Shown piece after piece: positions 8,450 through 45,143 of a stretch of DNA of 64,000 nucleotides. Source of the DNA: Vulcanimicrobiota bacterium (GTDB taxonomy: Bacteria > Vulcanimicrobiota > Vulcanimicrobiia > Vulcanimicrobiales > Vulcanimicrobiaceae); contig DAHUXH010000001.1 of assembly GCA_027307235.1 (NCBI GenBank), forward strand, positions 13,609 to 77,608. The letters are read 5' to 3'. Under the pieces are notes generated by a model. It saw only the letters and a list, made by a program, of their open reading frames with translations, was not told where the DNA came from and did not search any database. Each line of letters opens with the position of its first letter. Within the stretch, counting starts at the first letter, position 1. The position numbers and the translations under genes are program-made.

Positions 8450-8497
8450 TCGCTCGCCGGGCGACGGAATCCGCCGCTCGCACGCGAACAAGGACGC

Positions 8498-8965: not shown

Positions 8966-9060
8966 CCCGCTCCTCGACCGGAGAGCGGCCGAAAAACCCG
9001 AGAATTTCTTGCGAAGGGCGCATTCGTCGCCGCTTCGCATTCCGAGGCTACGATGCGCAC

Positions 9061-11421
9061 ATGATCGACTTGCGGATCGCTCGCGCGCGCATCGACGAAC
9101 TCGACGTGTATTGGCGCGCGGCCGATTACCTGGGCGCGGCGCAGTTGTACCTGCGCGGCAACGCGCTGCTCCGCGAACCGCTGGCTCCGCACCACCTCAA
9201 GGAGCGCCCGCTCGGCCACTGGGGCACGCAACCTGGCCTCAATGCGGTCTATACACACCTCAACCGCCTGATCTCGGAGACCGGGGCCAAGATCATGCTC
9301 GTCGTCGGCCCCGGACATGGCGCACCGGCGATTCTCGCCAACCTCTATCTCGAGGGAACGCTCGCGCTGTACGAACCACGTTTCGCATACGGCGAAGCCG
9401 GACTCACGCATCTCGTGCGCAGCTTCTCGTGGCCGGGCGGCATGCCGAGCCACGTCACCGCTATGACGCCCGGCGCAATACACGAAGGCGGCGAACTCGG
9501 ATACTGCCTCTCGCACGCCTACGGAGCCGCGCTCGACAATCCCGATCTGCTCGTCGCCTGCATCATCGGCGACGGCGAGGCGGAGACCGGACCGCTGGCC
9601 GCGTCGTGGTTCTGCAATCGGTTCCTCGACCCGCGAACGAGCGGTGCGGTGCTCCCGATCCTGCATGTCAACGGTTACAAACTTTCAGGACCGACCGTGC
9701 TCGGCCGCATGAGTGACGAAGAGATCGGCGCATACCTGACCGGGCTTGGATACGATCCGCTGATCGTTCACGGCGAGCACCTGGCGACGCTGCACGTCGA
9801 TCTGTGGAGCGCGCTCGACCGCGGGTACGCGCGTATCAGCGAGATCCAGCAGCGCGCACGCACCAGGAATACGGTCGCATCGCCATGCTGGCCGGTCATC
9901 GTTCTGCGAACGGAAAAAGGCATCACCGGTCCGGCTTACGTCGATGGAGTTCCCTGCGCTGGGAGCTGGCACTCGCACGGGCTTCCCTTCGACGATCCCG
10001 CGAGCAACGCGCAGCATCGAACCTTGCTCGAGGCCTGGCTGCGTTCGTATCGTCCAGATGAACTCTTCGACGAGCGCGGCTTCCCCAACGACCTCGTGCT
10101 CGAATCGCTGCCACGCCCGGAGCTGCGCATGGGGCGCAACCGGCATACCAACGGCGGCACGCTGCTTCGTCCGCTCGTATTGCCGCCGCTCGACCGCTTC
10201 GCCGTCGACATCGAAGAACACGGCCGGCCGGCCCTGTCCGCGACCGCGCGTTTGGGTGACTACCTCGCACGTGTCTTTCAAGCCGACGCGTCATCACACA
10301 CGTTTCGCCTCTTCTGTCCCGACGAAACGACGTCAAACAAACTCGACGCGGTCTTTTCACAAACCGATCGCGCGTTTCTCTGGCCGCTCGAACCCGGTGA
10401 CGAAGCGCTTTCACCTGACGGGCGCGTCATCGAGGTGCTGAGCGAACATACCTGCGAGGGCATGCTCGAAGGCTACATCCTGACCGGACGTCACGGCCTG
10501 CACGCCTGTTACGAGGGGTTCATCTCCATCGTCGACTCGATGATCCATCAGCACACAAAATGGCTCAAGATGAGCCGCGAAACGGCCTGGCGCGCACCGG
10601 TCGCGTCGTTGAACATCCTGCTCAGTTCACACGTATGGCGTCAGGACCACAACGGCTTCTCGCATCAGGGTCCGGGCTTCATCAACTCGCTGCTGACCAG
10701 TAAGGGCACATTCATTCGTATCTACCTCCCGCCCGACGCGAACACGCTGCTCTGCGCGACCGAACACTGCTTGCAGAGCCACGATCTGGTCAATCTCATC
10801 ATCGCCGGCAAGAACGAGATGCCGCAGTGGCTGGACGTCGCGCAGGCGCGCCTGCATTGCGCGCGCGGTGCGTCGATCTGGGATTGGGCGAGTACGGCGG
10901 TCGATGATCCTGAGGTCATCCTCGCATCGTCGGGCGACGTGCCGACGATGGAAGCGCTCGCGGCGATCACGCTCGTGCGCACCCACGTTCCGGATTTGCG
11001 CGTTCGCTTCGTGAACGTCGTGGACCTCATGACGCTGCCGTCGAGCGCCGATCATCCGCACGGGATGTCCGACGCGCACTTCGCCGAGATATTCGGAACG
11101 CAAACCCCCGTCATTTTCGCTTTTCACGGCTATCCGCGCGTGCTGCACGAACTGCTGTATCACCGCACAAATCCGCAGCGCTTTCACGTCCGCGGATACG
11201 AGGAAGAGGGAACGACCACGACGCCGTTCGACATGGTCGTGCGCAATCACATCAGCCGCTATCACCTCTTCCATGAACTCTTCCGGCGCGTACCGCGCTT
11301 CTCGTCGCGGATGCCGGAATTCGACGGCCAACTGCAGGGCTGGATCGAGCAACACCACGCGTACATCGTTGAACACGGCGTCGATGTGCCCGCGGTGACG
11401 ACGTGGAAGTGGAGCGATTAG
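9061..11421 (+). CDS. xfp: Xylulose-5-phosphate/fructose-6-phosphate phosphoketolase
   Basis: 786 aa. VYWRAADYLGAAQLYL, GHWGTQPGLN, IHEGGELGY, SSHVWRQDHNGFSHQGPGF. Full-length phosphoketolase pattern. Confidence 0.92.
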   Translation: MIDLRIARARIDELDVYWRAADYLGAAQLYLRGNALLREPLAPHHLKERPLGHWGTQPGLNAVYTHLNRLISETGAKIMLVVGPGHGAPAILANLYLEGTLALYEPRFAYGEAGLTHLVRSFSWPGGMPSHVTAMTPGAIHEGGELGYCLSHAYGAALDNPDLLVACIIGDGEAETGPLAASWFCNRFLDPRTSGAVLPILHVNGYKLSGPTVLGRMSDEEIGAYLTGLGYDPLIVHGEHLATLHVDLWSALDRGYARISEIQQRARTRNTVASPCWPVIVLRTEKGITGPAYVDGVPCAGSWHSHGLPFDDPASNAQHRTLLEAWLRSYRPDELFDERGFPNDLVLESLPRPELRMGRNRHTNGGTLLRPLVLPPLDRFAVDIEEHGRPALSATARLGDYLARVFQADASSHTFRLFCPDETTSNKLDAVFSQTDRAFLWPLEPGDEALSPDGRVIEVLSEHTCEGMLEGYILTGRHGLHACYEGFISIVDSMIHQHTKWLKMSRETAWRAPVASLNILLSSHVWRQDHNGFSHQGPGFINSLLTSKGTFIRIYLPPDANTLLCATEHCLQSHDLVNLIIAGKNEMPQWLDVAQARLHCARGASIWDWASTAVDDPEVILASSGDVPTMEALAAITLVRTHVPDLRVRFVNVVDLMTLPSSADHPHGMSDAHFAEIFGTQTPVIFAFHGYPRVLHELLYHRTNPQRFHVRGYEEEGTTTTPFDMVVRNHISRYHLFHELFRRVPRFSSRMPEFDGQLQGWIEQHHAYIVEHGVDVPAVTTWKWSD

Positions 11422-11891
11422 TGGAACTGCGTGACTCTGTTTCCGTCAATTGCTCGTGCGTGCAGGCCGAGCAGGCATTGCCGCGCGTCTTCGCAAGCCA
11501 CCGCGCCGCCGACGGATCGATCCGCTTGCCGCTGCGCGTGTCGTTACGTCATTTTGGGCTTCCCGACGAACTTGCGGTCGAACGCGACGTCACGGTTCAC
11601 GTGCGCAAGCAGCGGGACGAAGCCAACCTCAATGACATCTTCAAGATCGACTGGTCACCGGCAAACGACGGTCCGTATCCGTCCTTCTCGGGGTCGCTGA
11701 TCGTCTGGGGCGAAGACGATCCCAGACACTCGTTCATCGAAGTCATGGGCTCATACGAACCACCCTTCGGTACGATGGGTGAACTCTTCGACGCAGCCAT
11801 GGGCTATCGTATCGCCAAACATACCGCTCACGAATTCCTCATCGCACTTGCGTCGCAGATCGAACGCGTCGCCGCCGAAACCGCAGGGTGA
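11403..11891 (+). CDS. Hypothetical protein, coupled to xfp
   Basis: 162-aa ORF with good coding appearance. An in-frame GTG at 11421 overlaps the xfp stop (TAGTG), so the start is either 11403 or 11421. I recognise no motif. Confidence 0.5.
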   Translation: MEVERLVELRDSVSVNCSCVQAEQALPRVFASHRAADGSIRLPLRVSLRHFGLPDELAVERDVTVHVRKQRDEANLNDIFKIDWSPANDGPYPSFSGSLIVWGEDDPRHSFIEVMGSYEPPFGTMGELFDAAMGYRIAKHTAHEFLIALASQIERVAAETAG

Positions 11892-11894
11892 TCA

Positions 11895-12347
11895 TTGATG
11901 TTCAAACATATCTTCGTGGCCGTCGATGGATCGGAGTGCTCGCTGCAAGCCATGAAGGTGGCAGCGGGGCTCGCCAAGGAGCAAGGCTCGCAATGCACGG
12001 TGTGCAGCGTCGTCGACATCGTGCGCGCCGCATCCTCGATGGCGTTCGCGTATGGCGATATCGTCGATGCCTGGATCAAAGAACTTCAGCGAGAAGCGCA
12101 CGAGGTCGTTACCTCCGCGCAGGCAAGCGTCGCCGATCTTGGCGTTTCGCTCGGGGAGACGGTGGTTGAAGGCTACCCGGCCGATGCGATCGTCGATACG
12201 GCCTCTAGCGCGCATGCGGATCTCATCGTCATGGGCAGCCACGGCCGCTCGGGCTTTCGCCGGCTCTTTCTCGGCAGTGTCGCCGAATCGGTGCTGCGGC
12301 TGTCGCCGGTCCCGGTCCTCATCGTTAAGGAACAGCAGTCACCGTAG
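11895..12347 (+). CDS. Universal stress protein (UspA family)
   Basis: 150 aa. FKHIFVAVDGSECS...ADLIVMGSHGRSGFRRLFLGSVAESVLRLSPVPVLIV, the classic Usp ATP-binding G-2x-G-9x-G(S/T) region. Confidence 0.9.
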   Translation: MMFKHIFVAVDGSECSLQAMKVAAGLAKEQGSQCTVCSVVDIVRAASSMAFAYGDIVDAWIKELQREAHEVVTSAQASVADLGVSLGETVVEGYPADAIVDTASSAHADLIVMGSHGRSGFRRLFLGSVAESVLRLSPVPVLIVKEQQSP

Positions 12348-12842
12348 GCGTCTGGGTCGGCTTGGGCGGTAGGGGAACACCGCCCCCACATCGTGCGCGT
12401 GAGGCGCCAGGCGCGAGCGCACGCGCAGACGTGCTTTTCTCCAGATTTTCGCCCCGATGACGCGATAGTCGTTTTCACGAATATACAGCGGTGCGAGTTC
12501 AAACCGGTCGATTTCGTCATTTTCGAACAATCGCGAGCAACTCGACAGCACGTGCGTCAGTGTGGCTATCATCTGTGCGGTGAGCGGAACACCTTCGGTG
12601 TGCAATTGCTCGAGCATCGATTCGGCGGCGGTACCCGGCACCGGAGACAGACGCTCCACAGGCCTGTCGCCCGTGCTGATGACGATCTTGCGGGAGCCGT
12701 CACCTTCGACGATCCCCTCGATCCGCAACGGGATCCCCCGCTCGAGTTCGCCGTGGGCGAGATAACGCGCATCGGTAACGGGGACGTGAATGCCGTACTC
12801 ATCGAGCATGGTACGGACGTCGCGCCCACGCAATGGGATCAT
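12339..12842 (-). CDS. Hypothetical protein with truncated ATP-grasp-like ends (acetate-CoA ligase/succinyl-CoA synthetase beta-like)
   Basis: 167 aa. The N-terminus RDVRTMLDEYGIHVP and the C-terminal FELAPLYIRENDYRVIGAKI resemble the first and last segments of ATP-grasp_2/5 domains. The central nucleotide-binding part is missing. The start overlaps the hsp20 stop (ATGA). Confidence 0.4.
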   Translation of the reverse strand: MIPLRGRDVRTMLDEYGIHVPVTDARYLAHGELERGIPLRIEGIVEGDGSRKIVISTGDRPVERLSPVPGTAAESMLEQLHTEGVPLTAQMIATLTHVLSSCSRLFENDEIDRFELAPLYIRENDYRVIGAKIWRKARLRVRSRLAPHAHDVGAVFPYRPSRPRRLR

Positions 12843-13330
12843 GCGCCCTCGACCGTCACCTTCTGCGGGCGCGAGCCTTCCACGGGCTGCGCGGTGACCG
12901 TTAGAATCCCGTCTTTGAGCGTCGCGTGGATCGACTTCGGATCGATGGGCTCGGGCAACACGATGACGCGATGCAGCGCATTGCGGCGAATTTCCTTGAA
13001 ATGGTACTCGGCCTTGGACTCTTCGCGGCGTTCCTCTCGTTTGCCCGAGATCACGATGCGATTGTCGTAACCTTCCACCTCAATCTCGTTCTTGGCGAAT
13101 CCTGGGGCGGAAATCTCAGCGATATAGCTGCCGTCCTTTTCGTAGAGATCGGCCGGGAAGGTCGGACTGATCGCGCCCGCACCGATGTCGAACCATTGGT
13201 CCATCATACGGCGCATCGCTTCGAATTGTGAGTCGAAGAACGGAACCCCGGTCGGGCTGAACCAGCGTTCGAGCGGACGCCGTGTTTTCGGCTCGATGGT
13301 ACCGGTCGTGGTTTCAGTAGTCTGTGTCAT
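12839..13330 (-). CDS. Hsp20/alpha-crystallin family small heat-shock protein
   Basis: Start set at ATG 13330, with GGAGG 6-7 nt upstream. Alpha-crystallin core: ADLYEKDGSYIAEISAPGFAKNEIEVEGYDNRIVISGKR...RVIVLPEPIDPKSIHATLKDGILTV. Confidence 0.9.
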   Translation of the reverse strand: MTQTTETTTGTIEPKTRRPLERWFSPTGVPFFDSQFEAMRRMMDQWFDIGAGAISPTFPADLYEKDGSYIAEISAPGFAKNEIEVEGYDNRIVISGKREERREESKAEYHFKEIRRNALHRVIVLPEPIDPKSIHATLKDGILTVTAQPVEGSRPQKVTVEGA

Positions 13331-13521
13331 CGGGTGAACCTCCATCCCACAGTATGCGAAAGAGATACGCGCTTCTTGAGCAGTTCCGATGAACAATCCA
13401 TGAACCGCGCCTTCACCAAAACTGCGCATCCGTGACGTACCATGTCATCGGAAACGAGGCGCCGCCGGTTTGGGAGAATCGTGAGCGAACGCTCGTCTAC
13501 TATTCGAAGGAGTAAAGAACC

Positions 13522-14166
13522 ATGATCACCGATTCCGAGTTGCACCGCAACGTGCTTGACGAACTCGAATTCGAGCCGCGTGTCGATTCGCGCGACATCG
13601 GCATCGCCGTCAATGCCGGCATCGTGACGATGACCGGAAAGGTCCGCAGCTTCACCGAAAAATGGGCCGCCGAGGACGCTCTTAAACGCGTCGACGGAGT
13701 TCGCGGGTTAGCCAACGAGCTGATCGTCGAACTTGCAGGCACACATCAAGTCGACGACACTGACCTTGCACAGACCGCCTCGAATTTGCTGCGCTGGACT
13801 CCCGGTTGCGAAGACATTCAGGTGGCCGTGTCGCACGGCGTCATTACGTTGAACGGAGAGGTCGACTGGCAATATCAAAAATATGAAGCCGAACGACTCA
13901 TACGCCCACTGCGCGGCGTCATCTCCGTCAATAACGTGATCGAGCTGCGTCACCGTGTCGCACCCGCGGACGTCAAACGCCGCATCGAGGGCGAGTTTCA
14001 ACGAACCGCTAGCTTGGATGCCAAAGACATCGATGTGACGACGCACGATGGCGGCGTCAAACTGACCGGCACCGTGCATAGCTGGGCTGAACGCCAGAAC
14101 GCCGAACGCGCCGCCTGGTCGATTCCGGGCGTGATGCGTGTGGAGAACGAACTTGCGATTGCATAA
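13522..14166 (+). CDS. BON-domain protein (three BON-like repeats, OsmY-like, no signal peptide seen)
   Basis: 214 aa. The repeated pattern D..I.V.V..G.VTLTG.V occurs three times: IGIAVNAGIVTMTGKVRS, IQVAVSHGVITLNGEVD, IDVTTHDGGVKLTGTVHS. Confidence 0.8.
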   Translation: MITDSELHRNVLDELEFEPRVDSRDIGIAVNAGIVTMTGKVRSFTEKWAAEDALKRVDGVRGLANELIVELAGTHQVDDTDLAQTASNLLRWTPGCEDIQVAVSHGVITLNGEVDWQYQKYEAERLIRPLRGVISVNNVIELRHRVAPADVKRRIEGEFQRTASLDAKDIDVTTHDGGVKLTGTVHSWAERQNAERAAWSIPGVMRVENELAIA

Positions 14167-14635
14167 CATACTGCGCTGTGCGGGTGGAACCGCAGCGCTG
14201 ATCGCTCTTGCGCTCTCGCCGCTCGGGGCTCAAACGCCGGCTTTGCAACAGACTCCCGGATCCCAGATCGCGGTCACGTCGTGCGACGCTCATCGTCACG
14301 ACATCAGCCAGCGCCACGGCTGGATCGACCCATACGGCATCTACCACCCGGCCGCGATGGACTTTCCGTATGAAGACGCCTTCCTCGCCATCACCTACAA
14401 GAACACAGCGCAGGTGGCAGCGACTGAGATCGACTTCGGCTTGGTTGCGCGCAGTTCGCTGGTTGCCGTGGCGAAGGATGTCGGGACGTTCAGCACGGGA
14501 GCCGTGATCGATCACGAGTTTTCGATCAGTCGCCAAGTGTTGCCGCTCGGAACCGCATTTCCGTACTGCGCGGTATTACGCGTGAAATATGCCGACGGAC
14601 GAGTGTGGACCAACCCGAATCCTCCGGAAATCTAG
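14138..14635 (+). CDS. Secreted hypothetical protein
   Basis: 165 aa. Signal-peptide-like segment AGGTAALIALALSPLGAQ. Overlaps the BON gene end by 29 nt, so the true start may be further downstream. No recognisable motif. Confidence 0.45.
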   Translation: MWRTNLRLHNILRCAGGTAALIALALSPLGAQTPALQQTPGSQIAVTSCDAHRHDISQRHGWIDPYGIYHPAAMDFPYEDAFLAITYKNTAQVAATEIDFGLVARSSLVAVAKDVGTFSTGAVIDHEFSISRQVLPLGTAFPYCAVLRVKYADGRVWTNPNPPEI

Positions 14636-14653
14636 GCCCCAGGACCGCAACGG

Positions 14654-15694
14654 GTGCGCATTCTGTCTCTTGACACCGGGTCGTCATCGCTGAAGTTCAC
14701 CCTGTACGACGTCCAAGGAACGGCGTGCGCTCCGGTCTTTTCGGATGAACTCGTCGATCTCGATTCCTCGTGGAACGCTCAGACGGTCATCGAAAAGGTG
14801 TGGAGCGCATGCGGCCTGGCCGCGGCTGCAGCCGATGCCGCCGGTCATCGCATCGTCTTCGGAGGCCCTGAGCACCGTGGGCCGATGCGTGCGACACCGG
14901 GCCTCCTCGACGAGATCGAGCGCTACGTGCCGATAGAACCGCTCCATCTTCGAAGCGCGTTGGATGTCATCTACGAAGTTGCGCGCCGCATCCGAGATCT
15001 GCCGCAAGTGCTGTGTTTCGATACGGCGTTCCATCGTTCGATGCCGCCGATCGCCAAGCGTTTCCCGCTGCCCGGCGATATCGATCCCATCGTGCAGCGC
15101 TACGGATTTCATGGACTTTCATATGAATACGTCGTCGCACACGTTCGCGAGGCATCGATCGGGCGCGTCGTCATCGCGCATCTGGGCAACGGCGCGAGTT
15201 TAGCTGCGCTCGCGAACGGCATGCCGATCGACACGACCATGGGATTCAGCCCGCTCGGCGGATTGATGATGGGCACGCGCCCGGGCGACCTCGACCCGGG
15301 CGTGCTGTTGTATCTGCTGCGGTCCGGTTACGACGCCGCGTCGCTGACCGAGTTGCTGAACCGCCGCTGCGGATTAGCTGGCGTATCCGGTTCGACATCG
15401 AGCATGCAAGCGCTCCTCGCCGCCGCCGCAACCGACGCGCGGGCAGCGCAGGCCGTCGATCTCTTCGTCTATCAGTTGACCAAGCACATCGGCGGGATGA
15501 TCGCCGCGCTCGGCGGCCTCGACACACTGATCTTCACCGGCGGAATCGGCGAACACGCGCAACCGATTCGCTCGCGCGTCGAGCAGGCACTCGCCTACGC
15601 GCGCTGCCGCACGATGGTGGTGCGCACGGACGAGAATCTCATGATCGCGCGCCACACGGCGGCCATGCTAGCATCTACGGGCGCCTCGCGTTAG
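14654..15694 (+). CDS. ackA: Acetate kinase (short form)
   Basis: 346 aa, GTG start. ILSLDTGSSSLKF, FDTAFHRSMP, RYGFHGLSYEY, AHLGNGASL, GTRPGDLDPG, IFTGGIGEH, RTDENLMIA. These are the acetate/propionate kinase signatures. Confidence 0.85.
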   Translation: MRILSLDTGSSSLKFTLYDVQGTACAPVFSDELVDLDSSWNAQTVIEKVWSACGLAAAAADAAGHRIVFGGPEHRGPMRATPGLLDEIERYVPIEPLHLRSALDVIYEVARRIRDLPQVLCFDTAFHRSMPPIAKRFPLPGDIDPIVQRYGFHGLSYEYVVAHVREASIGRVVIAHLGNGASLAALANGMPIDTTMGFSPLGGLMMGTRPGDLDPGVLLYLLRSGYDAASLTELLNRRCGLAGVSGSTSSMQALLAAAATDARAAQAVDLFVYQLTKHIGGMIAALGGLDTLIFTGGIGEHAQPIRSRVEQALAYARCRTMVVRTDENLMIARHTAAMLASTGASR

Positions 15695-16857
15695 CGCGCG
15701 ACCGGCACTTGCCTCGCGCGAAGGACGCCATCAACGGTCTCGAGGTAGGCTTGCCCAACCTTCTCCCACGTCATCCCGTGTCCGAAGGCGTAGGCGCGCT
15801 TGGCCATGGCGTCGCGCGCGAGGTCGTGCTCGATGATGCGTGTGAATGCTGCCAGCGTCGCACCCGCGTCCGCGAACGGCACAAGGACGCCGCGTTCCAT
15901 CGCCAAGACTTCGCGTGCGTAGTCGTGCGGAGCCGACAGGACGGCTTTTCCCGCTCCCATCGCGTACGCCAGCGTTTCGTTCGTCACGTGTTCGACGTTT
16001 AAGAATGGACTCACGTAGACGTCGGTCGCCGCGAGGTAACGCACCACTTCAGGAAGCGTCAGGTGGCGGTCGATGGTCACGACGTTCATCTCGGCGTCAT
16101 AGCGGCGAATGAGCGCACGCAGTTCCTCGCGATACTCCTGGCGTTGCCGCATCGGGACGTTCGGGTGCGCCGACCCGGCGATCACGTAGAGCACGTCGGG
16201 GTGGCGACCCGCGACCGATGCAACGGCTTGGATGGCCGTCTCCAGACCCGCATCGCTTTCGGTCGCGCCGAACGTGGTCAACACGAAGCGCCCTTCGAAT
16301 CCCACTGAGTGCTTCATCTCAGCGGTCTGGGCGAATGCCAGATCGGGAACACCGTATGCAATAATGTCGACGAGCCGTGGATCGACGGAATAGCGTTCGA
16401 TCAGCAGGGCTGCCTCCGTTTCGGAGAACACGACCATCCGTTCGCTGCGGCTGCACAGAAATTGCGTGAGCGAGAGCTGGGTGGGCGTCGGATCGGCCCG
16501 TACGGTGTGCAATGTCAAGATGAACGGCTTGCGAAGCGCTTCCACCAGATCTGCCAGCCATGAGCCGTCCGGCCCGCCGTAGAGCCCGTATTCATGCTGG
16601 ATATTGAGCACGACCGATGGATGCTGATTCACGAACTGTGCGGTAGCGGCATAGCTGGCACGATCGAATTGATCCAGCCGAGCGACTATCTGTTTGGGGT
16701 AGAGATACTTCGTGTCTCGAGCGTCGTCGACAGCCACGATTTCGCTCGACGTTCCAAGCTGCGCATCGAACGCCGGCAACAGGCTTGCGGTGTAATTCGC
16801 AATGTTTGATTGCCGTGGTGGATACGCTCCCAGGAACAGTACTGGCGAATCGGACAT
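15691..16857 (-). CDS. Glycosyltransferase, GT-B fold (group 1/GT4-like)
   Basis: Start set at ATG 16857 (MSDSPVLFLGAYPP) with GGAGGG upstream. The C-terminal half has YLAATDVYVSPFLNVEHVTNETLAYAMGAGKAVLS, typical of the Glycos_transf_1 region. Confidence 0.75.
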   Translation of the reverse strand: MSDSPVLFLGAYPPRQSNIANYTASLLPAFDAQLGTSSEIVAVDDARDTKYLYPKQIVARLDQFDRASYAATAQFVNQHPSVVLNIQHEYGLYGGPDGSWLADLVEALRKPFILTLHTVRADPTPTQLSLTQFLCSRSERMVVFSETEAALLIERYSVDPRLVDIIAYGVPDLAFAQTAEMKHSVGFEGRFVLTTFGATESDAGLETAIQAVASVAGRHPDVLYVIAGSAHPNVPMRQRQEYREELRALIRRYDAEMNVVTIDRHLTLPEVVRYLAATDVYVSPFLNVEHVTNETLAYAMGAGKAVLSAPHDYAREVLAMERGVLVPFADAGATLAAFTRIIEHDLARDAMAKRAYAFGHGMTWEKVGQAYLETVDGVLRARQVPVAR

Positions 16858-16987
16858 GACACCCTCCGAGTGAAGCATCGCGTTTGGGTGCGAATCCATG
16901 AGGAAGATTCTTGGAAGGGCGGTTCTCCGGGTCTTCAAACGATGCGGCTACCATGACGGTGCGCCGGCACATTGCGGGGAGTTCTTC

Positions 16988-17761: not shown

Positions 17762-17762
17762 C

Positions 17763-18209: not shown

Positions 18210-18212
18210 ATC

Positions 18213-18884
18213 GTGAGTTCCCGCTTCATCAACCGCGCGCACGCCGGCCGCGAACTCGCGCAACGCCTCCTTGCCTATGCGGACCGCCCTGATGTCATCG
18301 TCCTGGCGCTGCCGCGCGGCGGCGTTCCCGTCGCCTACGAAATCGCCACGCGTCTACACGCACCCATGGACGTCTATGCCGTTCGCAAGCTCGGCGTGCC
18401 GGGGCACGAAGAGTTGGCGATGGGTGCGGTCGCACCCGACGGCACGACGATTGTCGACCGCCAACTCCTCGACTTGGTAGGCGTGAGCACCGAGGAATTC
18501 CATGCCGTCGTGCAGCGTGAGCTCGCCGAAATTCGCCGCCGCGAGCACGCCTATCGCGACGAGCGGCCGCGGCCGAGCATCGACGGCAAGACCGTTTTGG
18601 TCGTCGACGACGGCCTAGCCACCGGCGCCACCATGAGCGCGGCGGTCAACGCGTTACGCGCACAACATCCGGCGAAGATCGTCGTCGCGGCGCCGGTCGG
18701 CTCGCCGGAGACCTGCGGGATGCTCGCAGAGATCGCCGACGACGTAGTCTGCGTCGACATGCCGCTCGCATTCGGTGCGGTCGGTATGTACTACGACGAT
18801 TTTCAGCAGACCGGCGATGACGAAGTACGCCAGCTCCTCGCACGAGCGGCCGAAGAGGCATCCAAGCGATGGAACATCGTGTGA
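18213..18884 (+). CDS. Phosphoribosyltransferase-family protein
   Basis: 223 aa, GTG start. FINRAHAGRELAQRL, LALPRGGVPVA and the PRPP loop VLVVDDGLATGATM. Confidence 0.85.
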   Translation: MSSRFINRAHAGRELAQRLLAYADRPDVIVLALPRGGVPVAYEIATRLHAPMDVYAVRKLGVPGHEELAMGAVAPDGTTIVDRQLLDLVGVSTEEFHAVVQRELAEIRRREHAYRDERPRPSIDGKTVLVVDDGLATGATMSAAVNALRAQHPAKIVVAAPVGSPETCGMLAEIADDVVCVDMPLAFGAVGMYYDDFQQTGDDEVRQLLARAAEEASKRWNIV

Positions 18885-19534
18885 CGCCGCCCGCTGCCGA
18901 TGTCGTCTTGACCATCCCCGGCGGAGTGCTCGGCGCTACGCTCGCGGTGCCCGACCATCCGATCGGTGTCGTGCTCTTCGCTCACGGAAGCGGCAGCAGT
19001 CGCTTCAGCCCGCGCAATCGTTTCGTCGCTGAACGTCTTCAACGCGCGAAACTTGCCACGATGCTGATCGACTTGCTGACCACCGACGAAGAGCGCACCG
19101 ATCGCGTGACCGCTGAGTTTCGATTCGACGTGTATCTGCTGGCGCGGCGTTTGGTCGCGGCGACGGAATGGGTCTCGCTTCATTTTGCGGCCGCACCGTT
19201 GCCCATCGCCTATTTTGGTGCGAGCACCGGGGCCGCGGCGGCGTTGATAGCGGCGGCCCGCTACGGCAGCGTCATCGTCGCCGTCGTGTCGCGCGGCGGC
19301 CGGCCGGATCTGGCCGGCGAGGCGCTCGCGCGCGTGCGCGCGCCGACGCTGCTCATTGTGGGCGGCGACGACGAAGCGGTGATCGCCCTGAACCAAAGCG
19401 CTCGCAGCGCGATGCGCGCACACAGCGAGCTTGAGATCGTGCCGGGCGCGACGCATCTCTTTGAAGAGCCCGGCGCACTGGAACGCGTAGCCGAGCTTGC
19501 CGCGAACTGGTTTTCTCGATACTGCGCGGCGTGA
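18869..19534 (+). CDS. Alpha/beta hydrolase, dienelactone-hydrolase-like
   Basis: 221 aa. VVLFAHGSGSSRFSPRN...YFGASTGAAAAL (nucleophile elbow G-x-S-x-G)...LLIVGGDDE...GATHLFEEPG. Confidence 0.75.
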   Translation: MEHRVTPPAADVVLTIPGGVLGATLAVPDHPIGVVLFAHGSGSSRFSPRNRFVAERLQRAKLATMLIDLLTTDEERTDRVTAEFRFDVYLLARRLVAATEWVSLHFAAAPLPIAYFGASTGAAAALIAAARYGSVIVAVVSRGGRPDLAGEALARVRAPTLLIVGGDDEAVIALNQSARSAMRAHSELEIVPGATHLFEEPGALERVAELAANWFSRYCAA

Positions 19535-20439
19535 TGCACCAGCGATTCACACACATCATCGAACGCTGCGCGAACAGGCCGCCGATTCGCATGGCGGTCG
19601 TGCACCCGTGCGACCGCATCTCGCTCGAAGGCACCATCGCCGCGGCTGATGCCAAACTTATCGCACCCGTGCTGGTCGGCAATGCCGAGAAGATTCGCTC
19701 GATCGCGCACCGCGAGTCGTTGGACATCGACGGCTATGCGATCGTCACCGCCGCGCACAGTCATGACGCCGCGGCCAAAGCAGTCGAGCTGGCGCGCGAC
19801 CACAGCGTTGATGCGATCATGAAGGGCAGCCTCCACTCCGACGAATTGATGCACGAAGTGACCACACCGTCGTCCGGTCTGCACACGCAGCGCCGCATCA
19901 GCCATGTCTTCGTCGTCGATGTGCCCACGTATGCATATCCGCTGCTGATCACCGATGCCGTGGTGAACATCGTCCCCACGCTCGATGAAAAGCGCGACAT
20001 CATCCAAAACGCAATTGACCTCGCGGCCGCGCTCGAAATCGCGCAACCGCGTGTCGCGATTCTTTCCGCCGTCGAGACCGTCACCGCGAAGATCTCGGCG
20101 ACGATCGACGCTGCGGCGCTCTGCAAGATGGCGGATCGCGCGCAGATCACGGGCGGCATTCTCGACGGCCCGCTCGCGCTCGACGACGCTGTCAGCGAAT
20201 CGGCCGCGCGCGACAAGCAGATCACCTCGCCGGTTGCCGGCCGCGCGAACATTCTGGTCGTCCCGGATCTCGAATCGGGCAACATGATCGCGAAGGCGCT
20301 GATTCTGCTTGCCGGTGCCGACGCTGCCGGAATCGTGCTGGGCGCGCGCGTGCCGATCGTCTTGACCAGCCGCGCCGACAGCGTCCCCACACGCGTCACA
20401 TCCTGCGCGATTGCGGCGCTGCTGACGCCGGTTCGCTAA
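19531..20439 (+). CDS. pta: Phosphate acetyl/butyryl transferase (PTA_PTB family)
   Basis: 302 aa. RMAVVHPCD...DAIMKGSLHSDELM...ITDAVVNIVPTLDEK...NILVVPDLESGNMIAK...PIVLTSRADS. The acetyl versus butyryl specificity is not decidable by eye. Confidence 0.8.
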   Translation: MMHQRFTHIIERCANRPPIRMAVVHPCDRISLEGTIAAADAKLIAPVLVGNAEKIRSIAHRESLDIDGYAIVTAAHSHDAAAKAVELARDHSVDAIMKGSLHSDELMHEVTTPSSGLHTQRRISHVFVVDVPTYAYPLLITDAVVNIVPTLDEKRDIIQNAIDLAAALEIAQPRVAILSAVETVTAKISATIDAAALCKMADRAQITGGILDGPLALDDAVSESAARDKQITSPVAGRANILVVPDLESGNMIAKALILLAGADAAGIVLGARVPIVLTSRADSVPTRVTSCAIAALLTPVR

Positions 20440-20445
20440 CGTTCG

Positions 20446-20961
20446 CTAGTTCGGCGGCGTGTGGGGAAAGACGTCGAAGTACGGCGTCTTTGGTTCGACT
20501 GAAGGCGGCAATGGTTCGGGAGCGGGTACGCCGGCGGGCCCGAGGCTCTTGATGAACCGGTAGATGGCACGGCGGTCGGTGGTCGTCAACGCGCGCAGAT
20601 CGTGCCAGACCATCGGCCAATGTCCGCCGCGCGTGCTGACCATGAACAGCCACTGCGTTTCGGAGACTTGTTGAAATTCGAGACGTACGTTGGGCGGATA
20701 GCTCGTCCCCCATGGACCGCGATATCCTGTCGAGCTCCCCATCATCCAGCGCGCGACCGGCACGCTGCCGTCCGACTCCCGCCACCCCGGTGTATGGCAG
20801 TCATTGCAGCCACCGAAGGCGACCAGGTAGCGCCCGCGCGCGATGAGCGGATCCGCGCGAGCAAATAGCGGGGCCTTGGCGATGGTCGGCATGCTGCTCC
20901 CGGCGAGAAGCGCCAGCAGCAGTCCGGCGACGATGGCGGAAGACGTTCGTAGGCGGCTCAT
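20446..20961 (-). CDS. Secreted mono-haem c-type cytochrome
   Basis: 171 aa. Signal peptide MSRLRTSSAIVAGLLLALLAGSS and a single CNDCH haem-c motif. Confidence 0.75.
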   Translation of the reverse strand: MSRLRTSSAIVAGLLLALLAGSSMPTIAKAPLFARADPLIARGRYLVAFGGCNDCHTPGWRESDGSVPVARWMMGSSTGYRGPWGTSYPPNVRLEFQQVSETQWLFMVSTRGGHWPMVWHDLRALTTTDRRAIYRFIKSLGPAGVPAPEPLPPSVEPKTPYFDVFPHTPPN

Positions 20962-21030
20962 GTTCCTAGCTTCTCAACAGGTTCGCCGCTTCTTCTTCTC
21001 GGCTGCCGCGGCTGACTCTACGCTGGTGTC

Positions 21031-23454
21031 GTGATTCCGTCGGGCCTGAGCGAACGCGAGGCGGCGCTTGTCTTGGAACGAGTCGGCCCCAATCAACTGC
21101 GCCGGCGCGGCTGGGTGCTGCTCGACATCCTCGGGCGCCAACTCGGCAACCCCGTGCTGCTGCTCCTGGCCGCCGTCGCGGTCCTCTCGATCGTTCTCGG
21201 TCAGCGCACCGACGCGACGATCGTCCTCGGGATCGTGCTTCTCAGCGTCGGACTCGGCACGCTCAACGAGTATCGTGCGTCAACCGTTATTCGCGACCTG
21301 CAAGCGCGCATCAGGCACGAGACGACGGTCATCCGTGACGGCGTCGCACGGCGCATCGACGCATCGCTGATCGTTCCGGGCGACGCCGTGCGCGTTGAAC
21401 TCGGCGACGTCATTCCCGCGGACATGCGGCTGGTCGCGGTCGAAAACGCCGCGTGCAACGAAGCAACGCTGACCGGCGAATCGCTGCCTTCCGAGAAACG
21501 CGAGAACGACTTCGCCTTCATGGGCACCATCCTCGTCGCCGGGCGAGCAATCGGCATCGTGAGCAACACCGGCATGCGCACGCAGCTCGGCCAGTTCGCC
21601 GCGCAGTTACGCCACCTCCCGCCCGTGACGGCGTTTGAAAAAGGCTTGCGCGAGTTTTCGATGCTGCTGGCCGTCATCACCGCGATCGTTGCCGTTGCCG
21701 TGATGACCGTCAGCGTTGCGTTCATCCATCGCTCGGTGTGGGAATCGTTGATGTTCGCGCTCGCGATTGCCGTGAGTTTGACGCCGCAACTGCTGCCGGC
21801 AATCGTCACGGTCTCGATGTCGATCGGCGCTCGCCGCATGGCCGAGGCCGGTGTGATCGTCAAACGCCTGGTCAGCATCGAAGACGTGGGCAACGTTCAA
21901 GTGCTCTTCACCGACAAGACGGGAACCTTGACTCAAGGAACCACAACGTTTGCATCGTCGATCGATGCGGCAGGCAACGAGGCCGCGACAACCTCGCTCT
22001 ACGGATTGCTCTGCGACACGACGAGCGGCAACGGTGCGGGAGCCGGCGCGAGCATCCTCGATCGCGCCCTGCGCGGCGGCGCGCGGCCCGAGATGCTGGC
22101 TGCGGCCTCGAAATTTACGCGCATCGCGGAACTGCCGTTCGACTACGAGCGGCGCATGACGTCGGTGCTCGTGGCGGACGGAGCCGGACCGCGCACGGTC
22201 GTCGTGAAAGGCGCGCCCGAATCCGTGCTGGCGCGTTGCGTCGACGTCCCCGACGGCGCTCGCTCGGTGCTCAACGCACATCTCGATTCCGGCTTGCGCG
22301 TTCTAGCGGTCGCGACCCGCGATGTTCCCGCGTCGGTCGCGCACATCGAACTCGACGATGAGCGTGACCTGCACGTGAGCGGCTTCTTGCTCTTCTCCGA
22401 TCCGGTCAAGAGCGATGCCGCAGCGTCGCTCGCGCAGTTGCGCGGGCTCGGCATCGCCGTCAAGATTCTCACCGGAGACAACGAGCGCGTCGCGGTCAGC
22501 GTCTGCGCCGAACTCGGCCTCCCGCACGACGGCGTGCTGCTTGGCGAGCGAGTCGACGCGATGAGCGACAGCCAACTCAGCGCGGCGCTCGCGAGCACCG
22601 CGATCTTCGCTCGCACGAATCCGGCGCAGAAGGCGCGCATCGTGCGCTTACAGCGCGCGATGAACATCGACGTCGGCTATCTCGGTGACGGCGTCAACGA
22701 CGCCGGAGCGCTCCATGAAGCCGATGTCGGTATCTCGGTCGAATCAGCCGTCGACGTCGCGCGCGACGCGGCCGACATCATCCTGACCACGAAGGACCTC
22801 GGTATCCTCGCGAGCGGCATCACCCAGGGGCGCAAAATCTTCGCGAACACCGTGAAGTACGTGCTGATGGCGACCTCATCCAATTTCGGCAACATGATCA
22901 GCACGGCGGCAGGTTCGATGATCTTACCGTTCTTGCCGATGTTGCCGTCGCAGGTGCTGCTCAACAACTTTCTCTATGACATCAGCGAGATCACGATTCC
23001 AACGGATAACGTCGACGCACCACAATTGCGCCGGCCTGCACATTGGGACATGCGGCTCATCCGCCGTTTTATGTCGGTGTTTGGACCGATCAACGCCGGC
23101 TTCGATTTCAGCATGTTCGCGCTGATGCTCTTGGTGCTCCACCTGAGTGCGCCGGCGTTTCGCACAGGTTTCTTCATCGAATCCTTCACCACGCAGACCA
23201 TCGTCATCTTCGCGTTGCGCACGCGCGGCTGGATGTTCAAGAGCCGCCCGAGCATACCGCTGACAGCGACGACACTGGCGTGCGCAGCGGCCGGCCTCGC
23301 TCTGCCGCTCTCGCCGCTGGGCGCGTTCTTCGGATTCGCCGGGCTGCCCATCTCGACGCTCGCAGCGGTGCTGGGCCTGATCGTGCTCTACGTCCTGATC
23401 GTGGAGGGAACCAAGCGCCTGTTCTTCAGGACTGAGAACCTCCGCCAGACTTGA
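21031..23454 (+). CDS. Cation-transporting P-type ATPase (P2/P3-like, MgtA/CtpF-like)
   Basis: 807 aa, GTG start. LTGESLP, DKTGTLTQG (phospho-Asp), TGDN, GDGVNDAGAL. About 10 TM segments. Confidence 0.88.
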   Translation: MIPSGLSEREAALVLERVGPNQLRRRGWVLLDILGRQLGNPVLLLLAAVAVLSIVLGQRTDATIVLGIVLLSVGLGTLNEYRASTVIRDLQARIRHETTVIRDGVARRIDASLIVPGDAVRVELGDVIPADMRLVAVENAACNEATLTGESLPSEKRENDFAFMGTILVAGRAIGIVSNTGMRTQLGQFAAQLRHLPPVTAFEKGLREFSMLLAVITAIVAVAVMTVSVAFIHRSVWESLMFALAIAVSLTPQLLPAIVTVSMSIGARRMAEAGVIVKRLVSIEDVGNVQVLFTDKTGTLTQGTTTFASSIDAAGNEAATTSLYGLLCDTTSGNGAGAGASILDRALRGGARPEMLAAASKFTRIAELPFDYERRMTSVLVADGAGPRTVVVKGAPESVLARCVDVPDGARSVLNAHLDSGLRVLAVATRDVPASVAHIELDDERDLHVSGFLLFSDPVKSDAAASLAQLRGLGIAVKILTGDNERVAVSVCAELGLPHDGVLLGERVDAMSDSQLSAALASTAIFARTNPAQKARIVRLQRAMNIDVGYLGDGVNDAGALHEADVGISVESAVDVARDAADIILTTKDLGILASGITQGRKIFANTVKYVLMATSSNFGNMISTAAGSMILPFLPMLPSQVLLNNFLYDISEITIPTDNVDAPQLRRPAHWDMRLIRRFMSVFGPINAGFDFSMFALMLLVLHLSAPAFRTGFFIESFTTQTIVIFALRTRGWMFKSRPSIPLTATTLACAAAGLALPLSPLGAFFGFAGLPISTLAAVLGLIVLYVLIVEGTKRLFFRTENLRQT

Positions 23455-23505
23455 ATTCACGGGTTATTCCCAAACGATTCGCACGGCCATTCTAGGCTAA
23501 ATAGC

Positions 23506-23958
23506 ATGTTTAGAAAGCTCTTGGTGCCGCTCGACGGATCGGAGTGCTCCGAGGAAGCTTTTTCGCTCGCGATCGACATTGCGCGTCAGCACACTGCCGA
23601 ACTCATCGTCTGCGTGGTCGCCGATCCCGCGCAGATTGCAAGCTACGTTCCGGCGACCGGGGCGTCGAGCGAGTCGTGGATCAAACGCCTGCGTCACGAA
23701 GCCGGTGAGATCGTCGACGACGCCGTCGGCCGCGCGCGCAGCCGAGGCGTGACGTGCAACGGCGAACTGCTCGTCGAAGGCGGCACTGCGGCTGCCCTAG
23801 TCGCGCACGCCAAGAGCAGCCACGCCGATGGCATCGTGATGGGAACGCACGGGCGCACCGGCGTCGCCCGCGCCCTCTTCGGCAGCGTCGCAAGCGCGGT
23901 CGTCCGCGACGCCGAGTGCGCGGTCATCACCGTGCGCATGGCACGGCGCCACTCGTAA
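23506..23958 (+). CDS. Universal stress protein (UspA family)
   Basis: 150 aa. FRKLLVPLDGSECS...ADGIVMGTHGRTGVARALFGSVASAVVRDAECAVITV. Paralogue of 11895..12347. Confidence 0.9.
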   Translation: MFRKLLVPLDGSECSEEAFSLAIDIARQHTAELIVCVVADPAQIASYVPATGASSESWIKRLRHEAGEIVDDAVGRARSRGVTCNGELLVEGGTAAALVAHAKSSHADGIVMGTHGRTGVARALFGSVASAVVRDAECAVITVRMARRHS

Positions 23959-23959
23959 A

Positions 23960-24280
23960 TCAGCGCTTCCCTTCGCTCATCGATCCGATGGCGTCGTAGT
24001 GTTCGACGAACTCGGGAAAATCCAAGAGGTACTTTTCGTCTTCTGGGTAGTAGCGCGCTTTGTTGATGTCGTCGCCGGCGAAGGCGCGAATCGAGTCGAG
24101 TGAATCCCAGAACGAGAGCGTCACAATCTCGCCGACTTCGTTTTCAATCCGCGTGAAGATGAATGCGCCGCGATTTCCGGCAGTACGGAAGTAGTCCGAA
24201 AGTCCGGTCTCTTCAACATAACGACGGTACGTGGCCAGATCTGCAGCGCGGGTTCTGCCGCGCCAAACGCGAGCGATCAT
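23960..24280 (-). CDS. ABM-like (antibiotic biosynthesis monooxygenase/Dabb fold) small protein
   Basis: Only the last 106 codons of ORF 23960..24913 look genuine (MIARVWRGRTRAADLATYRRYVEE...). GGAG lies upstream of ATG 24280. The rest of that ORF is Arg-rich and antisense to the GGDEF gene. Confidence 0.55.
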   Translation of the reverse strand: MIARVWRGRTRAADLATYRRYVEETGLSDYFRTAGNRGAFIFTRIENEVGEIVTLSFWDSLDSIRAFAGDDINKARYYPEDEKYLLDFPEFVEHYDAIGSMSEGKR

Positions 24281-24351
24281 CGACGAAGTCTCCTTGGAAG
24301 TGATGTGATGCTTTGAGGCTGTGACCCCGTATGCATTCCGGCGGTTGCAGC

Positions 24352-25389
24352 CTACTGTTTCCAGTAGGAGAACCGGTAGCAGTTCTTGCCGGCGGCCTTC
24401 GCCGAGTAGACCGCCCGATCGGCCGCGGCGATCAGTGCGTCGGCGTCTTTGCCGTATGCCGCTGAAAACGCGATCCCGATAGAACAACTCAACGCAGCCC
24501 CGCGCAGAGCCGCGTAGATGCGAAGCATGACGGCCTCGGCAGCCGCGTTGTCGGTCCTCGGCATGATCAGCGAGAATTCGTCGCCGGCAAAACGGGCGGG
24601 AACGTCGGTTTCGCGCGTTTGCGTGCGCAAGATGTCGGCGATCGCTTTCAGTGCGGCGTCGCCGCCGGCGTGACCGCGCGAATCGTTGATGCGCTTGAAA
24701 TCGTCGACGTCGATCATCGCGAAGGCCAGCGGCTGTTCGGTGCGAGCGGCGACTGCCAGTTCGGCAGCGAGCCGATCCATCAACGCGCGACGATTGCGCA
24801 GGCCGGTGAGCGGGTCGCGCATCGCCAGACGTTCCAACTCGGCGGCCATGCGCATGTTGTCGAGTTTGAGCGCTGCTTGCGTGGCGAGTTCTTGCAAGGC
24901 GGCGACGGCCCACGGCGACGGCGCGCGTTCGACCGCGCTGTCGGCATAGACGATCGAGGACGTGCCCGCGCCCGGACGCACGGCGGCCGCCGCGTACCAG
25001 CGGCGCGTGTCGAAGAGCGGAGCATCGGGATCATCGGCGAGTCCGGTTGCGGCATCGCTGTCGGCGCGCGCGATCCGACGCAACGCGCTGTATTCGGGGA
25101 ACTCACCGCCGTACTCAGAGGGCACAACCGCACCGCCGTCGAGTTCGAACGTCGCGATCGCCGCTTCAGATTCGACGTCAAACCAAAACACTCGCGCGAA
25201 GCCGAGGCCGAGCCATGCACCGCGCAACGCCGCCCTAACCAGGTCTTCTTCCGACGCAGACTTGGCGATCTCGACGAAGCTGCTCTGCAATCGCTCCAGT
25301 CGCTGCGCCTTGATCTGCTCGGCGTCTCGCTCGGTCTCGACCGCGGCCAGACGCTCGGTCAGGAAGGCAATCGGATCCGCATCCCTCAT
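24352..25389 (-). CDS. Diguanylate cyclase-like protein (GAF-like N-terminal domain + GGDEF domain with AGDEF motif and RxxD I-site)
   Basis: 345 aa. DPLTGLRNRRAL...FAMIDVDDFKRINDSRGHAGGD...RETDVPARFAGDEFSLIM. Confidence 0.85.
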   Translation of the reverse strand: MRDADPIAFLTERLAAVETERDAEQIKAQRLERLQSSFVEIAKSASEEDLVRAALRGAWLGLGFARVFWFDVESEAAIATFELDGGAVVPSEYGGEFPEYSALRRIARADSDAATGLADDPDAPLFDTRRWYAAAAVRPGAGTSSIVYADSAVERAPSPWAVAALQELATQAALKLDNMRMAAELERLAMRDPLTGLRNRRALMDRLAAELAVAARTEQPLAFAMIDVDDFKRINDSRGHAGGDAALKAIADILRTQTRETDVPARFAGDEFSLIMPRTDNAAAEAVMLRIYAALRGAALSCSIGIAFSAAYGKDADALIAAADRAVYSAKAAGKNCYRFSYWKQ

Positions 25390-25407: not shown

Positions 25408-25434
25408 GGAGTCCTCGACCTCGTCAAGGACTCC
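25408..25434 (-). terminator. Hairpin between PEBP stop and GGDEF start (possible intrinsic terminator)
   Basis: GGAGTCCT-11 nt-AGGACTCC, a perfect 8-bp stem. On the minus strand it is followed by GTTCTCTACTCG, which is only weakly T-rich. Confidence 0.35.
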
Positions 25435-42315: not shown

Positions 42316-42334
42316 GGCACTTCGCGCGTTCTCT

Positions 42335-42356: not shown

Positions 42357-42359
42357 CGG

Positions 42360-44558: not shown

Positions 44559-44561
44559 GAA

Positions 44562-45137: not shown

Positions 45138-45143
45138 TCGTCC

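Follow-up and report, generated by a model that had tools for sequence, protein, structure and literature searches.

Whether the stress and energy genes that surround a phosphoketolase gene in a member of the Vulcanimicrobiota form one regulon, and which regulator would control them, is the question raised by a 64,000-nucleotide stretch of assembly GCA_027307235.1 (contig DAHUXH010000001.1, positions 13,609 to 77,608; hereafter the window, whose numbering is used unless another contig is named). An earlier sequence-only reading had described a contiguous stress-type island around a complete phosphoketolase (XFP)-acetate kinase (Ack)-phosphotransacylase (Pta) module, had likened it to the DosR/DevR dormancy regulon and had reported no convincing shared motif. 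Our analysis makes it reasonably probable that the genes of approximately 8966-23958 belong to a single, jointly controlled island regulon for stress and energy limitation, that its promoters are joined by a direct-repeat element termed here the GAA box, and that an OmpR-family response regulator encoded on a different contig is the likely regulator. The phylum Vulcanimicrobiota, also called Eremiobacterota or WPS-2, is abundant in polar deserts, in mosses and in soils that are oligotrophic and acidic, and its physiology is almost unstudied; no description of a phosphoketolase or of a stress regulon in Eremiobacterota was found in the literature searched.

The genome under study comprises 2.41 Mb in 20 contigs (C10, C12 and C20 among them) and is 96.6% complete; relatives' genomes and loci are labeled G006-G037 and L001-L023. 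Gene identities were assigned by Pfam and NCBIfam profile searches using the curated NCBIfam cut-offs. Neighborhoods of the phosphoketolase gene (xfp) of up to 40 kb each, from 13 relatives' loci and three added later, were compared with the proteins of the genome under study. The family searches confirmed the contiguous island around the XFP-Ack-Pta module, and Pfam or NCBIfam matches were obtained for the XFP, universal stress protein (USP), Hsp20, BON, glycosyltransferase, SDR, PNPOx-like, PRTase, P-type ATPase and GGDEF assignments. GC content was 0.60-0.65 across the island and approximately 0.64 for the window, and a strong sign of recent import was not seen. The closest public phosphoketolase loci (57-60% identity) belonged to metagenome-assembled genomes labeled Vulcanimicrobiota, Candidatus Baltobacteraceae and Candidatus Rubrimentiphilum.

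Pairwise comparison of the island intergenic regions revealed repeated GnGAA units, and a motif that had escaped detection by eye proved to be common to four island promoters. This GAA box consists of three GnGAA units in direct repeat with an 11-bp period, which is one helical turn. Box 1 (8989-9016, plus strand; CCGAAA-N5-GAGAAT-N5-GCGAAG) precedes xfp and lies approximately 35 nt upstream of a -10-like hexamer, TACGAT, which in turn ends 6 nt upstream of the ATG of xfp. Box 2 (16890-16917, plus strand; GCGAAT-N5-AGGAAG-N5-TGGAAG) precedes the SDR operon, again approximately 35 nt upstream of a hexamer, TACCAT. The architecture common to these two promoters (box, approximately 35 nt, TAC(G/C)AT hexamer) suggests upstream activation. 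Box 3 (20970-20997, minus strand; AAGAAG-N5-GCGAAC-N5-GAGAAG) is located between the cytochrome c and ATPase genes, and box 4 (23455-23482, minus strand; GCGAAT-N5-GGGAAT-N5-GTGAAT), the best-scoring site of the genome, precedes the second universal stress protein gene (USP2). The box of the ATPase and USP2 promoters is in inverted orientation and stands nearer to the -10-like hexamer than at the xfp and SDR promoters, and the sign of regulation there is uncertain. Two two-unit sites were found on the plus strand of the divergent hsp20/BON region (13389-13490; ATGAAC-N5-ATGAAC at 13389 and GAGAAT-N5-GCGAAC at 13474), a region in which the full three-unit box was not found.

The pattern GAA-N8-GAA-N8-GAA occurs 19 times genome-wide compared with 22.6 matches expected from composition, and four of the 19 fall within the 763 bp of island intergenic DNA, in four regions (Poisson P 5.4e-11). 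When all 64 trinucleotides were enumerated at periods of 8-13, only GAA at period 11 occurred at least twice in island intergenic DNA. The eight top sites given by a simple weight matrix across the 2.41-Mb genome were all intergenic. Among the best four sites outside the window, three precede identifiable genes, namely an operon of an SRPBCC paralogue, a cupin and an M50/CBS protease, an operon of a cupredoxin and a haem barrel, and a nitroreductase gene, and the fourth lies in a stretch without a confident gene call. The nitroreductase and the M50/CBS protease, encoded elsewhere in the genome behind the same motif, extend the resemblance to the DosR regulon beyond the island.

An independent test of the box was subsequently made on 33 loci of other genomes, none of which had been used to define the motif. 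Hits were recorded at 0.379 per kb in intergenic regions facing homologues of regulon-type genes, at 0.033 per kb in other intergenic DNA and at 0.014 per kb in coding DNA (P 3.6e-12), an enrichment of approximately 10-fold or more before the same gene families in relatives. The pooled consensus was gnGAAnnnncn-ggGAAggactn-GnGAAG, and the sites overall consist of two to four direct repeats with a spacing of about one helical turn.

Comparison across related genomes, which the sequence-only reading had proposed, showed the homologues to co-occur rather than to be scattered. Phosphoketolase itself is patchy and is present in 19 of 41 genomes when the genome under study and its relatives are counted together. 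The ack gene adjoins xfp in 15 of the 16 relatives' loci, and 12 of the 16 have a gene of some further island family no more than 20 kb from xfp, the families counted being USP, SRPBCC, Hsp20, BON, the ORF type found at 12339, P-type ATPases, PNPOx, Pta and the secreted protein found at 14138, along with the genes of the candidate regulator and its kinase partner described below. Gene order and membership differ between genomes, and the SDR, PRTase, hydrolase, glycosyltransferase, GGDEF and 106-aa ORF are specific to the version of the island described here. The clustering is beyond chance, as relatives repeat these families around xfp-ack and one cis-element is common to the operons.

OmpR/PhoB-family response regulators typically bind tandem direct repeats one helical turn apart. 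Given that the GAA box fits this binding mode and that orthologues are embedded in relatives' islands, the most likely regulator of the boxes is an OmpR-family response regulator at C12:177463-178152 (Response_reg 1.4e-25, Trans_reg_C 1.6e-21), whose closest solved relatives are MtrA, RegX3, BaeR, KdpE and PhoP. Orthologues with 46-64% identity were found in 30 of 41 relatives, and the regulators embedded in relatives' islands are these orthologues. The gene directly adjoins xfp in G007, G028 (three copies), G032, G033, G037 and L003, and lies within 10 kb of it in G010 and G018. Where xfp is lacking, the regulator gene has SRPBCC paralogues, USPs, Hsp20 and P-type ATPases for neighbors, and very often a haem-copper oxidase operon as well, such that island-type genes neighbor it in nearly every locus examined. 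In the genome under study, the regulator and its kinase partner adjoin SRPBCC paralogues and a ba3-type cytochrome oxidase, the COX1 of which matches that of Thermus ba3 over its full length (377 bits). A box precedes the operon containing the regulator in G006, G028 and G010, a layout as expected for autoregulation, and the xfp-ack loci of G035 and G036, two genomes that do not encode the regulator, have neither stress neighbors nor an intergenic box. One other OmpR-type regulator (C10:305719) has a weak box upstream (score 16.3) and was ranked below the candidate, as no neighborhood link to the island genes was found for it in relatives. Directly upstream of the candidate regulator is a stand-alone receiver-like ORF (C12:177074-177366) that carries, as judged by eye, Glu at the expected phospho-acceptor Asp and may be a pseudo-receiver.

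The kinase partner (C12:178152-178913) is short and soluble and has an H box (HEIGNAL) and an N box; no transmembrane, PAS or GAF domain was recognized in it. Its G1/F/G2 region is deleted in the genome under study and in several relatives and kept in other orthologues. Approximately 13 of 15 orthologues conserve three cysteines (FNIC, and C-x6/7-C immediately ahead of the N box), through which the signal may be read. Long near-perfect inverted repeats were noted just downstream of the kinase gene (C12:178900-179090).

At the center of the island, the module that would be controlled in this manner is plausibly complete, because a kinase that scores below cut-off nevertheless keeps all catalytic motifs. 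Phosphoketolase (9061-11421, plus strand) matches Pfam XFP_N/XFP/XFP_C and exceeds the cut-off of NCBIfam NF003619 (1175.6 bits versus 962). The acetate/propionate-family kinase (14654-15694, plus strand; Pfam Acetate_kinase) is short at 346 aa, divergent and below the NCBIfam cut-offs. Its GSSSLK, HRIVFGG, FDTAFH, RYGFHG, HLGNGAS, GTRPGDLDP and FTGGIGE segments align to PDB 6ioy, and all of its catalytic motifs match those of solved acetate kinases. Phosphate acetyltransferase (19531-20439, plus strand) is of the PRK11890 type and exceeds the NF008852 cut-off (466.4 bits versus 413), so both the acetate kinase call and the PTA/PTB call of the sequence-only reading held. Among plasmid-database neighbors of a Pta homologue, the Azospirillum context was DUF3141-pta-ack, with no stress island.

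Taken together, these observations lead us to propose that the candidate regulator would bind GAA boxes and thereby co-regulate approximately eight promoters and 25-30 genes. Within the island, this set would include the xfp-SRPBCC-USP1, SDR-PNPOx-PRT-hydrolase-pta, ATPase and USP2 promoters, with two-unit versions at the BON-ack operon. The inducing condition would be oxygen or energy limitation, and by analogy the signal is probably one of these two. XFP would then cleave fructose-6-P or xylulose-5-P to give acetyl-phosphate, which Ack would turn into ATP and acetate at no redox cost, and Pta would balance acetyl-phosphate against acetyl-CoA. In this way XFP-Ack would supply substrate-level ATP from sugar phosphates, whether stored or scavenged, with no net formation of NAD(P)H, the ba3 oxidase would scavenge residual oxygen, and USPs, Hsp20, BON and other proteins would protect the non-growing cell. 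Acetyl-phosphate is a known small-molecule phosphodonor for OmpR-family regulators. Since the kinase partner has no ATP boxes, XFP makes acetyl-phosphate and Ack/Pta drain it, the regulator could itself be the acetyl-phosphate sensor, the kinase a Cys-based redox-gated phosphatase and the SRPBCC proteins that regularly adjoin the pair ligand-binding co-sensors, forming an Eremiobacterota-specific feed-forward energy-status switch; we regard this elaboration as improbable.

Several points weigh against the proposal. The link between regulator and box depends upon neighborhood and on the binding mode of the family in a genome with 12 OmpR-type regulators, and the regulator gene is on a different contig from the island. 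Phosphorylation may not follow a canonical route, given that the kinase partner does not have the G1/F/G2 ATP-binding boxes. Box orientation and distance to the -10-like hexamers vary, so that the regulator may activate or repress, and there is little information in the two-unit sites (BON, haem barrel). In the class-level relatives G032, G033 and G037, the regulator and kinase genes stand directly upstream of xfp without the strict three-unit repeat. The designation of low oxygen as the signal rests on analogy with the lxa locus of Burkholderia cenocepacia and with DosR and on linkage to the ba3 oxidase. Finally, gene starts and genome-wide gene calls were made with a simple in-house caller.

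Sites for other regulators were also searched. No FNR box (TTGAT-N4-ATCAA) was present in the island, the one match outside it being at chance level, and the single clear CRP-family gene of the genome is on another contig. No Rex operator was found in the island. The sole perfect Rex-type operator in the genome, TGTGAAACTTTTCACA, is intergenic at C12:74738, and a Rex homologue is encoded at C20:27834. A sigma-70 consensus promoter scan gave no match in any island intergenic region, and terminator-like matches were at chance level. Separately, the intergenic DNA between the kinase gene and xfp in G032, G033 and G037 (L018-L023) has an inverted repeat, TGTGAAG-N4-5-CTTCACA, with a variable loop, once per locus and just past the kinase stop codon; the repeat resembles a Rex operator and may represent an operator or the hairpin of a terminator.

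With these data, four other accounts of the island were weighed. The one that deserves most attention, and which we consider rather unlikely, is a general stress regulon that answers desiccation, osmotic, acid or starvation stress instead of oxygen limitation, its box regulator sensing envelope or energy stress. Gene sets for osmotic, desiccation and general stress typically include BON/OsmY-like proteins, Hsp20, USPs, a glycosyltransferase and an MgtA-type pump, and the kinase has no recognizable oxygen-sensing domain (PAS-haem, GAF). Eremiobacterota are moreover common inhabitants of dry, acidic and oligotrophic places (PMC9758169, PMC11437008). Oxygen limitation is nonetheless favored by the repeated linkage of the regulator-kinase pair to ba3-type oxidase, cupredoxin and cytochrome genes, by low-oxygen induction of the same family set in B. 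cenocepacia (PMC3721108) and by the nanoxia response of Acidobacterium capsulatum, in which USPs, pta and a sensor kinase rise (PMC11636273). Cupredoxins and the CuA/CuB oxidase beside the regulator-kinase pair, together with a P1B-type ATPase in G032, G033 and G037 and the conserved cysteines of the kinase, would also fit a copper or redox-homeostasis regulon of the CopR/CusR type in which the stress genes are incidental neighbors. This is very improbable: most boxes precede non-metal genes (xfp, the SDR-pta operon, USP, nitroreductase, SRPBCC), and the island ATPase is MgtA-type, not P1B.

A DosR/DevR-type regulon as in mycobacteria or Streptomyces would have an evident candidate in the window, in that a LuxR-type response regulator (REC+GerE) and a GAF-HisKA-HATPase kinase (40091-42315, minus strand; Pfam) are encoded 15 kb downstream of an island whose gene-family content resembles the DosR regulon. 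We find this scarcely credible, given that the DosR core box GGGAC-N4-GTCCC had no match in the 64-kb window with up to one mismatch allowed, that no palindromic dyad is shared among the island intergenic regions, and that the pair adjoins kdpABC and a gene for KdpD sensor domains. The pair is disfavored as the island regulator on account of this neighborhood and because relatives' matches to the LuxR regulator are only generic (28-29%), the regulators in their islands being OmpR-type orthologues of the candidate. Least credible of all is mere adjacency without common regulation, the GAA repeat being a compositional accident. Its genome-wide count (19) is near compositional expectation and two-unit sites are common, but this account is strongly disfavored by the concentration of matches in the island, by the intergenic position of all eight top sites and by the independent enrichment in relatives. 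A co-regulated stress and energy-limitation island under the OmpR-family candidate remains the favored reading.

The remaining genes of the island were assigned as follows. Translationally coupled to xfp is a protein without a Pfam match (fam11403; 11403-11891, plus strand) whose AF2 model (pLDDT 81, pTM 0.79) retrieved ZhuI, MSMEG_0129 and Bet v 1-type folds with Foldseek, and on the strength of this model it is identified as an SRPBCC/START-fold protein. It has several paralogues in the genome under study and in relatives, and a profile search for the family returned 17 proteins, all unannotated. USP1 (11895-12347, plus strand; Pfam Usp 3.7e-36) is single-domain, with PDB relatives of the generic UspA/MJ0577 type. 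Downstream of hsp20 is a conserved 167-aa protein (12339-12842, minus strand) with homologues that adjoin ack, xfp or hsp20 in G007, G010, L001 and L002; it had earlier been described as an ATP-grasp remnant, and in Pfam its ends match ATP-grasp_5 only weakly (E 0.003). Hsp20/alpha-crystallin (12839-13330, minus strand; Pfam HSP20 1.5e-18) was given its start at 13330 on the basis of the Shine-Dalgarno sequence. The divergent BON gene encodes a triple-BON, OsmY-like protein (13522-14166, plus strand; Pfam BON x3, NCBIfam OsmY-like below cut-off), and it is followed by a secreted protein of unassigned function and no family match (14138-14635, plus strand), a 63% identical homologue of which is placed between xfp and ack in L003.

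A GT1/GT4-type glycosyltransferase (15691-16857, minus strand; Pfam Glycos_transf_1, NCBIfam matches weak) is divergent from a five-gene operon (16988-20439, plus strand; Pfam, with NCBIfam for Pta). This operon encodes, ahead of Pta, an SDR (16988-17761), a PNPOx-like flavoprotein (Pyridox_ox_2; 17763-18209) closest to Mll6688 and Nim-like proteins, a PRTase (18213-18884) and, overlapping it, an alpha/beta hydrolase (18869-19534), all on the plus strand and all matched in Pfam. The hydrolase had been called DLH; it is an alpha/beta hydrolase, and its DLH match is weak. Similarly, the predicted cytochrome c (20446-20961, minus strand) has a signal peptide and a CNDCH motif, read from sequence, and is retained as a putative secreted monohaem protein, with no Pfam or NCBIfam match and a low coding score. 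The P-type ATPase (21031-23454, plus strand; Pfam domains) had been likened to CtpF, but it passes the MgtA-type (IIIB) model TIGR01524 (619.8 bits versus 610.75) and is not of the IIA/CtpF type. USP2 (23506-23958, plus strand; Pfam Usp 7.1e-29) is likewise single-domain.

Translation signals differ among these genes. A TAnnnT hexamer ends 6-7 nt before the start of xfp, the ATPase gene and USP2 (9043-9063, 21013-21033 and 23489-23508), with no Shine-Dalgarno sequence, and for this reason the three transcripts may be leaderless. The SDR, Hsp20, glycosyltransferase and BON genes have GGAG-type ribosome-binding sites.

At the left edge, a Bcp/PrxQ-type, peroxiredoxin-like thiol peroxidase (8498-8965, plus strand) matches NCBIfam thiol peroxidase models below cut-off. 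Coding score prefers this ORF over the N-terminal part of a minus-strand ORF (8063-9040), which is over-extended, relatives matching only its C-terminal 128 or so aa (8063-8449, a membrane protein). Because the ORF upstream of xfp is this plus-strand peroxiredoxin gene, 8966-9060 is true intergenic DNA; the peroxidase is a flank gene, and its membership of the island is unproven. At the right edge, the sequence-only reading had counted an ABM protein and a GAF-GGDEF protein as members. The former is a 106-aa ORF (23960-24280, minus strand) with no family match, and the latter (24352-25389, minus strand; Pfam GGDEF, AGDEF motif) received no support for a GAF part in the family searches. Neither was present in the relatives' islands examined and neither is tied to the island by the motif, so the right-hand end (GGDEF, 106-aa ORF and an FMO gene) is not demonstrably part of the island. 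Between the divergent GGDEF (minus) and FMO-like (plus) genes is a perfect dyad with 8-bp arms, GGAGTCCT-N11-AGGACTCC (25408-25434), which may be an operator for a different regulator and whose arrangement is not that of the DosR box.

Further downstream, a putative outer-membrane barrel bearing CXXCH (27536-28618, plus strand) has a two-unit GAA site at 27510 and may be an outlying member of the island. Its paralogue (C12:1886-3070) follows a full GAA box and is met repeatedly in the islands of relatives. Each of the two haem barrels (the second within C12:1886-3426) carries a signal peptide, a single CXXCH and a C-terminus resembling that of porins; the barrel on C12 is paired with a cupredoxin, and homologues recur beside the ba3 oxidase and the candidate regulator in relatives. 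The kdp region (40091-48912) has split-looking Kdp sensing: a protein of 732 aa (42360-44558) has two KdpD sensor domains but lacks a kinase, and it is encoded divergently from the GAF kinase and LuxR-type, not OmpR-type, regulator described above, next to kdpCBA.

What had been a list of neighboring genes thus becomes a testable regulon with a defined box and with a specific candidate pair, regulator and kinase, that is conserved throughout the class. Such a regulon would link redox-neutral ATP formation by XFP-Ack, a ba3 oxidase of the high-affinity class and protective proteins. New here are the GAA motif, the candidate regulator pair and the extension of the regulon to other contigs and genera.

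Among known systems, OmpR/PhoB-family regulons are exemplified by those of PhoB (pho box), KdpE, PhoP and MtrA, and by ArcA and ResD for oxygen limitation. Features shared with them are a regulator of REC and winged-helix domains, tandem direct repeats and, in three relatives, a regulator behind its own box. The kinase partner differs in the genome under study, being short, soluble and without ATP-lid boxes, and we know of no characterized member of the family that matches in GnGAA half-site and regulon content. Pseudomonas aeruginosa has an Anr-dependent pyruvate fermentation via AckA-Pta, with USPs. In the soil acidobacterium A. capsulatum, a respiro-fermentative response to nanoxia raises USPs, pta and a sensor kinase (PMC11636273). 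These are likewise aerobic soil or opportunist bacteria that induce USPs and acetate-forming pta/ack as oxygen ends, but their acetyl-phosphate comes from pyruvate/acetyl-CoA and not from phosphoketolase, the genes concerned are not presented as a single island, and other regulators are involved.

DosR belongs to the NarL/LuxR family of regulators, binds a 20-bp palindrome and, as part of a two-component system, controls a hypoxia survival regulon; the OsdR cluster of Streptomyces coelicolor is a system related to the DosR regulon of Mycobacterium tuberculosis. The resemblance drawn by the sequence-only reading stands for shared gene families (USPs, alpha-crystallin, nitroreductase, PNPOx-like, PRTase plus hydrolase, P-type ATPase and M50/CBS protease) and, short of orthology, at that level only. 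The USPs of the genome under study are single-domain and only weakly like Rv2623, its ATPase is MgtA-type IIIB rather than CtpF/IIA, and neither a palindromic box nor an island-tied LuxR regulator was found. The mycobacterial DosR regulon is also, to our knowledge, scattered and without an XFP-Ack-Pta module.

The closest parallel is the lxa locus of B. cenocepacia J2315, a physically clustered, low-oxygen-activated set of approximately 50 genes (Sass et al. 2013, PMC3721108). It encodes USPs, an alpha-crystallin and a BON-type, phospholipid-binding protein together with acetate kinase and a phosphate acetyl/butyryl transferase, and also cytochrome c, nitroreductase and a cation ATPase. It was read as an aid to non-growing survival under anoxia, and the likeness to DosR was drawn explicitly in the same paper (PMC3721108). 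The island shares with lxa the clustering of USPs, small heat-shock protein, BON-type protein, ack, a pta-type transferase, a putative cytochrome c and a cation ATPase. Nitroreductase is within the lxa cluster and in the genome under study is encoded elsewhere but behind the same box. Physical clustering joined to an acetyl-phosphate pathway, to which the sequence-only reading had drawn attention, is indeed present but is not new in itself, because lxa already has it (PMC3721108). The lxa locus differs in also holding alcohol dehydrogenases, a ribonucleotide reductase and the genes of polyhydroxyalkanoate (PHA) synthesis and in its association with regulators of the Anr/CRP type, and phosphoketolase is not mentioned in the main text of the lxa paper, whereas the present island includes xfp, spans 15 kb, has OmpR-style direct repeats in place of FNR boxes and belongs to a different phylum. 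The island is therefore a functional analogue of DosR and lxa with different wiring and not a DosR regulon. A low-oxygen gene kit (USP, small heat-shock protein, BON, nitroreductase, PNPOx, P-type ATPase and ack/pta) appears to have been assembled again in a third phylum, with a third kind of candidate regulator, OmpR-type here as compared with DosR in actinobacteria and Anr in Burkholderia, and this reassembly can inform our understanding of how aerobes endure anoxia.

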